Shown in pieces: positions 26,073-32,300 of a stretch of DNA of 64,000 bases. The first letter of the stretch is position 1, and every line of letters starts with the position of its first letter. The translations under genes were made by a program, and so were the position numbers. Below the pieces are notes generated by a model, which saw only the letters and a list, made by a program, of their open reading frames with translations, was not told where the DNA came from and made no database searches. The DNA lies in NCBI GenBank assembly GCA_964016885.1, contig OZ024758.1:35340001-35404000 (forward strand), in the 5' to 3' direction. This stretch comes from Eledone cirrhosa (taxonomy: Eukaryota).

Positions 26073-26841
26073 GTATTAGTTATACTATTTATGGTTATGT
26101 AAACACAAAACCTTAAGCAGTTGTAAGTATTTTACACACACCCTAAATAGTGGTAGGCAGTAATGTATTACTACCTTATTACCAGTAAGTTAAGTAGCTC
26201 AATGTAAAAACATCAGATGATTTACAGAGCAGTTATATGAAATATAAGAATCAAAGAACTGCTCAAAACATTATTGTGCTTACAGCTGTTTCCTCCAAAC
26301 CGAGGTTTGGATTCTTCGGAGCAATTTATTAATGCATGGACAGTTATATGACCTCCCCTTCAGCCGAGAGACATACCAATACATATTCAAACATTGATAC
26401 ATATTCAAACATTGTGGGTCAACATTCATTACAGAATTTAGAGTGGCAGTACACACTTCGAGATTACATTTATATTAATAGGTACAATCAAAAATCAAAG
26501 ATATAGGTTAAAGTACAACATGAAGATAAGTGGTTATATAACCACTTATCTTCATGTTGTACTTTAACCTATATCTTTGATTTTTGATTGTACCTATTAA
26601 TATAAATGTAATCTCGAAGTGTGTACTGCCACTCTAAATTCTGTAATGAATGTTGACCCACAATGTTTGAATATGTATCAATGTTTGAATATGTATTGGT
26701 ATGTCTCTCGGCTGAAGGGGAGGTCATATAACTGTCCATGCATTAATAAATTGCTCCGAAGAATCCAAACCTCGGTTTGGAGGAAACAGCTGTAAGCACA
26801 ATAATGTTTTGAGCAGTTCTTTGATTCTTATATTTCATATA
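26073..26841. mobile_element. Fold-back element family C with paired hammerhead-like motifs (-26277..26323, +26752..26798)
   Basis: Spacerless arms of about 300 bp centred on 26537/26538. Motif TGCT-CCGAAGA-A-TCCAAACC-TC-GGTTTGGA-G-GAAA-CAGCTG-TA-AGCA. Confidence 0.85.
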
Positions 26842-29020
26842 TATGTATATATATATTTATATATATATTTATATATATATGTATATATATATATGTATAT
26901 ATATATGTATATATATATGTATATATATATATATGTATATATATATATGTATATATATATGTATATATATATATGTATATATATATATATGTATATATAT
27001 ATATGTATATATATATATGTATATATATATATGTGTATATATATATGTGTATATATATATGTATATATATATATGTATATATATATATGTATATATATAT
27101 ATGTATATATATATATGTATACATATATATATATATGTATATGTATATATATATATATATATATATATGTATGTATATATATATATGTATGTATGTATAT
27201 ATATGTATGTGTATATATATATGTATATATATATATGTATATATATATATGTATATATATATATGTATATATATATATGTATACATATATATATATATGT
27301 ATATGTATATATATATATATATATATATATATATATATATATATGTATGTATATATATATATGTATGTATGTATATATATGTATGTATATATATGTATGT
27401 ATATATATGTACGTATATATATGTATGTATATATAAGTATGTATATATATGTATGTATATATCTGTATGTATATATATGTATGTATATATATATATGTAT
27501 GTATATATATATATGTATATATATATATATGTATGTATATATATATGTATATATATATATATGTATATATATATATATGTATATATATATATGTATATAT
27601 ATATATATATGTATATATATATATACGTATATATATATATATGTATATATATATATGTATATATATATATATGTATATATATGTATATATATATATATGT
27701 ATATATATATATGTATATATATATATGTGTATATATATATATATATGTATATATATATATATATGTATATATATATATATATATGTATATATATATATAT
27801 GTATATATATATATATGTATATATATGTATATATATATATATATATGTATATATATATATATATATGTATATATATATATATGTATATGTATATATATAT
27901 ATATATGTATATGTATATATATATGTATATGTATATATATATGTATATGTATATATATATGTATATATATATGTATATGTATATATATATGTATATGTAT
28001 ATTTATATATATATGTATATATATATGTATATGTATATATATATATATATGTATATATATATGTATATGTATATATATATGTATATGTATATATATATAT
28101 ATATGTATATATATATGTATATGTATATATATATATGTATATGTATATATATATATATATGTATATATATATGTATATGTATATATATATATGTATATGT
28201 ATATGTATATATATATATATATGTATATATATATATATATGTATATATATATATATACATATATATGTATATATATATATATATACATATATATGTATAT
28301 ATATATATATATATACATATATATGTATATATATATATATATACATATATATGTATATATATATATATATACATATATATGTATATATATATATATACAT
28401 ATATATGTATATATATATATACATATATATGTATATATATATATATATACATATATATGTATATATACTTATATATGTATATATATATATACATATATAT
28501 GTATATATATATATACATATATATGTATATAAATATATATATAAATATATATACATATATATGTATATAAATATATATATAAATATATATACATATATAT
28601 GGATATAAATATATATATAAATATATATGTATATATATATATATATATATATATATAAATATATATGTATATATATATATATATATATATATATATAAAT
28701 ATATATGTATGTATATATATATATATATATATATATATAAATATATATGTATGTATATATATATATATATATATATAAATATATATGTATGTATATATAT
28801 ATATATATATATATAAATATATATGTATATATATATATATATATATATATATAAATATATATGTATATATATATATATATATATATATATAAATATATAT
28901 TGTATATATATATATATATATATATATATATAAATATATATGTATATATATATATATATATATATATAAATATATATGTATATATATATATGTATATATA
29001 TATATATATATATATATATA

Positions 29021-29366
29021 GATTTTGAATTTATGTTGGTTGTATACCAACACCTCAGTATGCAGGCTGGAGCACTCAACGAAGGTTTGGTTACTCCGAA
29101 GTAGTGGAAAATAAAGTTAAATAAAGGGTCAAATGATTAAAATTTAGCTTCGTTTATTATTGCTATATATATTTCAGTGACAGCCATCTTTGGCTGTGAC
29201 CTCTTCAGGCAGTTTGAATTAGTATGGTATAGACAACTTGTCTATACCATACTAATTCAAACTGCCTGAAGAGGTCACAGCCAAAGATGGCTGTCACTGA
29301 AATATATATAGCAGTAATAAACGAAGCTAAATTTTAATCATTTGACTTTTATTTAACTTTATTTTA
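29021..29366. mobile_element. Fold-back element family B, copy 2 (hammerheads -29159..29213, +29261..29315)
   Basis: Appears identical to 24449-24793 at an offset of about 4573 bp. Confidence 0.88.
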
Positions 29367-32300
29367 TATGTATATATATACATATATATATATATATATA
29401 TATATATATATATATATATATATATATATATGTATATATATATATATATGTATATATATATATATATATATGTATATGTATATATATATATATATGTATA
29501 TGTATATATATATATATGTATATATATATATATATATATATATGTATATATATATATATATATATATATGTATATATATATATATATATATGTATATATA
29601 TATATATATATATGTATATATATATATATATATATATATATATATGTATATATATATATATATATGTATATATATGTATATATATGTATACATATATATA
29701 TATGTATATATATGTATACATATATATATATGTATACATATATATATATATATACAAGTATACATATATATATATATGTATACATATATATATCTATATA
29801 TATATATATACAAGTATACATATATATATATATGTATACATATATATATATATGTATACATATATATATATATGTATACATATATATATATGTATATATA
29901 TGTATATATATATGTATATATATATATATATATGTATACATATATATATATATGTATACATATATATATATATATATACATGTATATATATATATATATG
30001 TATACATATATATATATATGTATACATATATATATATATGTATATATATATGTATATATATATGTATATGTATATATATATGTATATATATATATGTATA
30101 TATATATATATGTATATATATATATATATATATATATATGTATATGTATATATATATGTATATATATATATATATATATATGTATATATATATGTATATA
30201 TATATGTATATATATATATATATATGTATATGGTATATATATATATATATATATATGTATATATATATGTATATATATATATGTATATATATATATATAT
30301 ATATATATGTATATATATATATAAATGTATATATGTATATATATATATGTATATATATATATGTATATATATATGTATATATATATGTATATATATATAT
30401 GTATATATATATATATATGTATATATATGTATATATATATATGTATATATATATATGTATATATATATGTATATATATATGTATATATATATATTTGTAT
30501 ATATATATGTATATATATATGTATATATATATATGTATATATATATGTATATATATATGTATATATATATGTATATATATATGTATATATATATTTATAT
30601 ATATATGTATATATATATATGTATATATATATTTATATATATATGTATATATATATATGTATATATATATTTATATATATATTTATATATATATGTATAT
30701 ATATATATGTATATATATATGTATATATATATGTATATATATATATATGTATATATATATATGTATATATATATGTATATATATATATGTATATATATAT
30801 ATATGTATATATATATATGTATATATATATATGTATATATATATGTGTATATATATATGTGTATATATATATGTATATATATATATGTATATATATATAT
30901 GTATATATATATATGTATATATATATATGTATACATATATATATATATGTAATGTATATATATATATATATATATATATGTATGTATATATATATATGTA
31001 TGTATGTATATATATGTATGTGTATATATATATGTATATATATATATGTATATATATATATGTATATATATATATGTATATATATATATGTATACATATA
31101 TATATATATGTATATGTATATATATATATATATATATATATATATGTATGTATATATATATATGTATGTATGTATATATATGTATGTATATATATGTATG
31201 TATATATATGTACGTATATATATGTATGTATATATAAGTATGTATATATATGTATGTATATATCTGTATGTATATATATGTATGTATATATATATATGTA
31301 TGTATATATATATATGTATATATATATATATGTATGTATATATATATGTATATATATATATATGTATATATATATATATGTATATATATATATGTATATA
31401 TATATATATATGTATATATATATATACGTATATATATATATATGTATATATATATATATGTATATATATATATATGTATATATATGTATATATATATATA
31501 TGTATATATATATGTATATATATATATATGTATATATATATATATATGTATATATATATATATATGTATATATATATATATATATGTATATATATATATA
31601 TGTATATATATATATATGTATATATATGTATATATATATATATATATGTATATATATATATATATATGTATATATATATATATGTATATGTATATATATA
31701 TATATATGTATATGTATATATATATGTATATGTATATATATATGTATATGTATATATATATGTATATATATATGTATATGTATATATATATGTATATGTA
31801 TATTTATATATATATGTATATATATATGTATATGTATATATATATATATATGTATATATATATGTATATGTATATATATATGTATATGTATATATATATA
31901 TATGTATATATATATGTATATGTATATATATATATGTATATGTATATAATATATATATATGTATATATATATGTATATGTATATATATATATGTATATGT
32001 ATATGTATATATATATATATATGTATATATATATATATATGTATATATATATATATATGTATATGTATATATATATATATATGTATATGTATATGTATAT
32101 ATATATATGTATATATATATATATATAGGTATATATATATGTATATATATATATATGTATATATATATATATATATATGTAGATATGTATATATATATAT
32201 ATATATATATATATATATATGTATATATATATATATATATATATATATATATATATATATATGTAGATATATATATATATATATATGTTATGTATATATA

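Follow-up and report, generated by a model that had tools for sequence, protein, structure and literature searches.

Why does an interrupted (TA)n block in the genome of Eledone cirrhosa stand twice in a row, once with and once without a large palindromic insert? The block lies on contig OZ024758.1 (assembly GCA_964016885.1, positions 35,340,001 to 35,404,000, forward strand), and the whole 64,000-nt stretch analysed is referred to as the window, to which all coordinates apply. Between 23.6 and 33.5 kb, the window is a single interrupted (TA)n array with hairpin elements A, B, and C, as well as a second B (Table 1). The original prediction described two consecutive repeats of this block, offset by about 4573 before C and about 3801 after it. 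Global alignment of 23600–28300 against 28200–32400 bore this out, with two blocks that are homologous throughout except at C (3,832 matching and 15 mismatched positions, small indels, and a single 779-bp gap), and with offsets of 4573 at B and 3801 past C, going from 4593 to 3814 right at C. The gap corresponds to the 769 bp of C plus 10 nt of duplicated target, and the four TTTA interruptions around C are contiguous in the empty copy, as had been proposed (at about 30595–30686). There is no N in the window, and hence none between the tandem copies; a repeat search of the region was swamped by TA self-complementarity. The reading we favor, at a probability of roughly 0.6, is that C is a recent truncated fold-back insertion that duplicated 7–15 target bases, and that its twin never carried C and was joined to it by out-of-register TA exchange.

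Table 1 Features of the duplicated TA block and its surroundings (window coordinates; cells are empty where nothing applies).
Feature	Position	Strand	Basis or remark
Segmental-duplication unit, common to four other genome sites	18471..64000	+	
Element A, fold-back outside the tandem repeat, 83-nt tail on one side, hammerhead motif with its core at 23530	23202..23630	.	
Tandem copy 1, containing B and C, of the interrupted (TA)n block	23660..28257	+	alignment
Element B copy 1, fold-back, tail on one side, canonical-core hammerhead motif (core at 24693)	24448..24795	.	z -3.0
Target-site duplication (TSD), left copy, maximum 15 nt, minimum 7 nt, includes the diagnostic G	26058..26072	+	
Element C, 769 bp, a Hydra-type (by motifs) Penelope-like retroelement inserted as a complete fold-back with 5' truncation	26073..26841	.	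blastn to 4,199-bp unit
161-nt 3' tail of C (unit 4039-4199), left arm only	26073..26233	-	
Left arm of C, element sense on the minus strand	26234..26537	-	matches the reverse-complemented right arm at 304/304 nt
Right arm of C, inverted, tail-less	26538..26841	+	
Putative hammerhead-like motif (minimal, type I) whose core, CCGAAGA, is non-canonical; mirrored in the left arm	26752..26798	+	motif scan
TSD, right copy	26837..26851	+	
Tandem junction, 16-25 nt TA microhomology, gapless	28233..28257	+	
Tandem copy 2, containing B but not C; private one-base indels inside: three	28242..32057	+	alignment
Second copy of element B, with no difference from the first (348/348 nt)	29021..29368	.	
Empty site, target single-copy	30651..30665	+	alignment; 4/4 paralogs alike
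Fourth private one-base indel, just past copy 2	~32286		

Element C consists of two 3' ends, arranged head to head, of a Penelope-like retroelement with a unit of 4,199 bp. By blastn, it follows the unit from 4199 to 3732 on the minus strand (99.6%) and then from 3732 to 4038 on the plus strand (99.3%), and the two arms meet at a TATA palindrome with a 6-nt overlap. The result is a perfect 608-nt palindrome between direct repeats, in an insert that retains no ORF. While the fold junction of C occurs only once genome-wide, the family is abundant: a 38-mer taken from C matches the genome exactly at 1,215 places (607 + 608), and a search with the left 468 nt of C gave 1,554 candidates, 40 of which were scored, with 40 of the 41 matches listed being full-length at 99–100%. 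One independent insertion, L075, shares the fold point of C (unit 3732), with the opposite tail polarity and two extra central bases. A long inverted repeat within TA DNA might suggest a microsatellite-targeting MITE or a foldback DNA transposon with terminal inverted repeats, but the arms of C derive from the 3' end of a unit that encodes an RT, their 5' truncation varies, and the tail is confined to one side. With an ORF in the parent and no fixed terminal inverted repeats, we reject this identification, which is scarcely credible.

Parent copies on contig C23 are spaced 4,199 bp apart in tandem arrays and contain an open 819-aa ORF, followed by ~1.7 kb. By motif, this ORF encodes an RT and then a C-terminal GIY-YIG endonuclease (YRDD at 354, VIYSC at 697, TYVG at 711), while a Pfam search and a PDB sequence search of the ORF both gave nothing significant. 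Its residues include RWR at 38 (in the aligned rows, RWK in 17/35 and RWR in 16/35), DKT instead of DKG at 123 (DKT in 30/35), a CxCx5C linker (CNCRANRTC at 678), and, in the endonuclease, a CxxC (CNLC at 776) and a CxH (CQH at 804). CCHH is not present in the protein, which has a lone Cys between VIY and YVG. The RWR, DKT, YRDD, CxCx5C, CxxC, and CxH motifs show conservation across the 35 sequences aligned. These features can be compared with the Hydra clade as defined in the available text of Craig et al. 2021 (PMC8557442), i.e., RW[K/R], DKT, CxCx5C, CxxC, CxH, no CCHH, and a (TA)n target. Because RWR, DKT, YRDD, CxCx5C, CxxC, CxH, and the absence of CCHH match the published clade features, the family of C would, by its motifs, belong to the Hydra clade of Penelope-like elements. 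It also displays the general traits of Penelope-like elements, namely tandem arrays, an inverted 5'-truncated copy, a tail on one side, and a short TSD.

Within this known clade the family is new, although Repbase or Dfam may already hold a consensus; in the literature searched, which was partially covered and lay outside these two databases, we found no description of the family or of any Hydra-clade target duplication. Relatives of the 819-aa protein number 304 at E ≤ 1e-20, and among the 120 of these that were listed, the sole one bearing a species name comes from Argonauta hians. Recent Penelope-like activity is reported in the accessible part of a study on O. vulgaris, with 336 recently active insertions (PMC13282606). 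Among the closest described systems is Hydra-1_Obim, the one Hydra family from Octopus bimaculoides in the available supplement of PMC8557442, which likewise combines an RT, a C-terminal GIY-YIG, the clade motifs, a (TA)n target, and a hammerhead-like motif near the 3' end, and whose RT motifs in the supplementary alignment are recognisably similar by eye to those of the 819-aa ORF. Unlike the family described here, which has clear tandem arrays and two fixed termini, Hydra-1_Obim is 2,507 bp long with no pLTR given in that source, and the hammerhead core CCGAAGA further sets the two apart. The 4,199-bp unit also exceeds the <3 kb noted there for Hydra elements in general, a length that is a tendency rather than a strict criterion, and its 161-nt tail is longer than the 30–40 bp described for Penelope-like tails.

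Whether C was gained or lost could be evaluated from paralogs. Because the fold junction of B had seven matches in the genome, all of which could be assigned to loci, the block was revealed to be part of a segmental duplication with four further copies, at 37.10, 38.63, and 39.74 Mb on contig C19 and at 13.24 Mb on contig C27, with lengths of 20 to >50 kb. In window coordinates, the duplication reaches at least 64.1–69.7 kb in three copies and ~38 kb in the fourth, and the paralogs differ from the window at 3–7 of 4,192 and 4–6 of 3,180 callable flank sites. All five copies begin at a 54-bp satellite array (window 1–18509), and a C2H2 zinc-finger exon (window 51528–52076) is present in at least four of them. 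In each of the four paralogs, the TA block is single, B is present, and C is absent. The 115-nt empty site is letter-identical in three of these paralogs, while the fourth varies in TTTA spacing only. Between the second and third TTTA, the five empty copies all have two G interruptions and the filled site has three. Since the four paralogs lack C and carry the diagnostic G once, the empty state is ancestral, and the presence of empty paralogs along with a duplicated G supports a recent insertion with a TSD, the first of the possibilities originally raised. The original prediction had neither named the identity of C nor recognized the segmental duplication.

The extra G also delimits the duplication. 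It sits in a direct repeat no longer than 15 nt, which is reduced to no less than 7 nt after trimming bases that may derive from the element (as many as 5 nt on one side and 3 nt on the opposite side), so the TSD is 7–15 nt long. A duplication around C had been predicted at about 13 nt: it is real, but its length is this range rather than exactly 13 nt. The available literature on Naiad and Chlamys indicates that target duplications are often unreadable because the targets are microsatellites, and the five empty copies of this interrupted TA site thus provide a direct 7–15-nt measure.

Two other origins that had been considered, near-precise loss and hairpin dropout, both imply that C was once in both copies and disappeared precisely from copy 2, either in vivo or because a polymerase or assembler skipped the hairpin. 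A perfect 608-nt palindrome with flanking direct repeats is indeed a substrate for deletion. Loss, however, would require precise removal in five lineages, making insertion far more parsimonious, and near-precise loss is contradicted by four paralogous loci that are all empty, each with a single G. Skipping of the hairpin fares no better: copy 2 is also devoid of the unpaired 161-nt tail, of the extra G, and of the three private substitutions of copy 1, hairpin B survives in all six blocks, and the junction of C is present once in the genome. We consider disappearance from copy 2 very improbable. C is young, and an empty lineage of the block exists whether the tandem is real or joined; in itself, the filled/empty pair is an ordinary insertion polymorphism.

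Next, we evaluated how such a structure may arise, based on other fold-back insertions of the family. To that end, we collected opposite-strand pairs among the first 100 of the 1,215 matches to the 38-mer, which yielded 20 fold-backs, all on contig C1. For 18 of them, one end lies at unit position 4198–4199 and the other at 4037–4038; two could not be resolved (one leaves the locus and one is interrupted), and in none of the 20 was the same end found twice. Both ends lie in a TA repeat in all 18 resolved fold-backs, as do all 28 non-tandem tail ends listed (some of these loci overlap). At the fold junction, the arms overlap by 1–7 nt in 14/20 cases, and a gap or filler is found in the remaining six. 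Inner truncation points are mostly unequal between arms, and since either arm may be the longer, one arm cannot simply be copied from the other. Arm pairs were identical in 9/18 comparisons within a locus vs 30/306 across loci (3 of 21 loci were left out for a short arm), although conversion could alternatively account for the sharing of variants between arms. Target duplications can be recognized at a few of these loci: G-marked direct duplications of 13–14 nt flank L072 and L078, while in L016 a G located 8 nt into one flank is unmatched in the other, so that the duplication there is ≤8 nt.

In the available text of PMC11167929, purified Penelope protein is described as cutting and extending both strands, with synthesis starting at two sites that bound the tail. 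Because the one-tail ends and the arm data fit this in vitro two-strand result (PMC11167929), two primings on staggered nicks are likely. The likely course would then be two primings from one source RNA followed by microhomology joining. Specifically, the GIY-YIG endonuclease may nick both (TA)n strands a few bases apart, and each nick would prime reverse transcription, with one start at unit 4199, where the tail ends, and the other at unit 4038, 161 nt upstream. Both cDNAs would be copied from a single source RNA, the two truncated products would be joined through 1–7 nt of microhomology, and fill-in would leave the target duplication. The empty twin would represent a lineage in which the block had never acquired C, brought alongside by out-of-register exchange at a short TA microhomology.

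Two systems offer points of comparison. According to the accessible text of PMC3846280, Penelope insertions of Adineta vaga share a head-to-head inverted arm, a junction palindrome, a tail on one arm, and a short TSD proven by an empty allele; the tail there is 31 nt and the TSD 8–10 bp, whereas here the tail is 161 nt, the target is strictly (TA)n, and the insert is ORF-less. Poseidon PAc of Anolis, as presented in the available text of PMC11167929, is similar in its two starts bounding the tail, its cutting and extension of both strands in vitro, and its AT-rich target, but it belongs to another clade and starts within the ORF, whereas here the tail stops 45 nt short of the ATG in the following unit. 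The one-sided tail and inverted arm of Penelope-like elements have already been described qualitatively in the literature, as far as its accessible parts indicate, and their origin is stated to be open in the available texts of PMC8557442 and PMC11167929. Since its tandem copies are intact and near-identical and its one-tail rule is strict, the family offers a ready substrate for an in vitro test, and is useful as a model of Penelope integration.

A stronger version of this scheme, which we regard as rather unlikely, would make dual priming obligate, with two non-equivalent primings behind every fold-back insertion and telomerase-like stuttering at the upstream start, and would have the hairpins turn TA blocks into breakage hot spots, yielding, in a single young family of segmental duplications, a real 3.8-kb tandem, a templated insertion, and an inverted duplication. 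In 6/19 tail-less ends, the last few bases are repeated before the TA tract. Short terminal reiterations were observed at L067, L069, L074, L075, L077, L078, L029, and L086, and resemble abortive or telomerase-type re-priming. At L073, the flanks are mutually inverted over ~40 nt beyond the TA tract.

The remaining component of the favored reading is the tandem itself, which we consider probably real, either through unequal exchange between filled and empty alleles or through a duplication that occurred early and was later followed by the insertion. Between copy 1 and copy 2 there are 10 substitutions, along with 3 odd and 18 even indels; between copy 1 and each of two paralogs, there are 5 substitutions, with no odd and 19–21 even indels. 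Copy 1 is thus no nearer to copy 2 than to these two paralogs, which excludes a recent sister-strand duplication. By eye, we found no derived change common to both tandem copies, suggesting that the separation of copy 2 is about as old as that of the paralogs.

As the original prediction also raised, two haplotypes may have been assembled in tandem; that the tandem is an assembly or single-read join is possible, if doubtful. As a complete account, the same recent insertion would be retained, and the allele with C and the one lacking it (or a sixth paralog that had been collapsed) would have been joined through a poor or chimeric read, a scenario that we consider less likely. Copy 2 and its tail contain four private one-base indels in 5,219 nt, whereas the five remaining blocks have none in 27,518 nt, an excess with a probability of ~6e-4 if errors are independent, which would be overstated if read quality varies. 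They also carry three A-to-T changes, whereas the private changes of copy 1 are three transitions. The private indels suggest thin read support, although real mutation could also produce them. Moreover, a cluster of differences private to the window lies at 33568–33680, the tandem copies have no derived change in common, and five near-identical paralogs make for a hard assembly graph. False duplications of the heterotype and homotype kinds, as outlined in the available text of PMC9516828, likewise place two diverged versions of a locus side by side, with error-like letters in one, and heterotype cases mostly share a scaffold in long-read assemblies.

Nevertheless, gaps are given as a mark of false duplications in that source (PMC9516828), while here the junction is gapless, and its overlap of merely 16–25 nt appears too short for a read overlap, which favors a real tandem. 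Copy 2 also matches none of the four assembled paralogs, with window-private SNPs in both flanks. Every paralog shows smaller duplications and deletions mediated by TA, which measure tens to hundreds of bases, and together with the gapless short-overlap junction they fit a real event. TA repeats are known break sites (PMC12972899, available text). A chimera with one of the assembled paralogs was rejected, as private SNPs occur in both flanks and none of the paralogs' deletions occur in copy 2. Searches with the flanks yielded five full-length copies each, and no alternative haplotig.

Among the sequencing runs, 9 of the 12 listed contain part of a flank, with a best share of 0.67. For four runs of organism D searched with the left 468 nt of C, the family was present, with loose TA ends at 26234. 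Reads from organism D have T at 26262 and 26357–8 almost throughout, where C has the base C. Since organism D is nearly devoid of the subfamily variants of C, these runs appear to come from a different individual and are uninformative on the locus. Among G000 copies, the two subfamily-marking variants are likewise in the minority (12/72 and 7/66).

Hammerhead-like motifs were detected in all three hairpin elements. For the family of C, a motif scan found the core CCGAAGA in all 36 matches, with stems I–III that fit; upon folding of the motif in C, stem II forms, with an overall z of -1.29. Rfam searches of 22–34 kb gave no hammerhead among the best 150 of 359 matches at E ≤ 1. These 150 matches, every one to a microRNA model, were dismissed, as all were below gathering scores and produced by hairpins and TA runs. 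Element B is likely another Penelope-like family, and its parent ORF was not found among 8 loci. The exact fold junction of A (23443–23477) has 248 genome matches, and sixteen retrieved copies are 90–99.5% similar to A, with the 83-nt tail on either arm. The fold point of A is a preferred one, perhaps corresponding to the 5' end of a short non-autonomous RNA.

Several neighboring rearrangements were also observed. In the C27 paralog (L047–L048, joined, reverse), ~57 nt from the center of hairpin B, 1.2 kb off, replace part of the right arm of A by the fold point. This piece is a templated insertion, as expected from the repair of a broken palindrome, and represents the seventh match of the B junction. 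Past B, the TA block of the same paralog contains a 228-bp insertion that is not in the other five blocks and that we take to be SINE-like. The paralog at 39.74 Mb on C19 (L045–L046) contains in the same TA block a 1.3-kb 5'-truncated LINE, whose RT motif resembles that of an ORF at window 43376–46282, and which is preceded by an inverted copy of ~250 nt of flanking microsatellite. Within the window, a Penelope-like fragment with a GIY-YIG and CCHH-type cysteines lies on the minus strand at 21882–22394, and a Hydra-like C-terminal piece is found at 37780–38427, inside an inverted repeat spanning 37286–39741.
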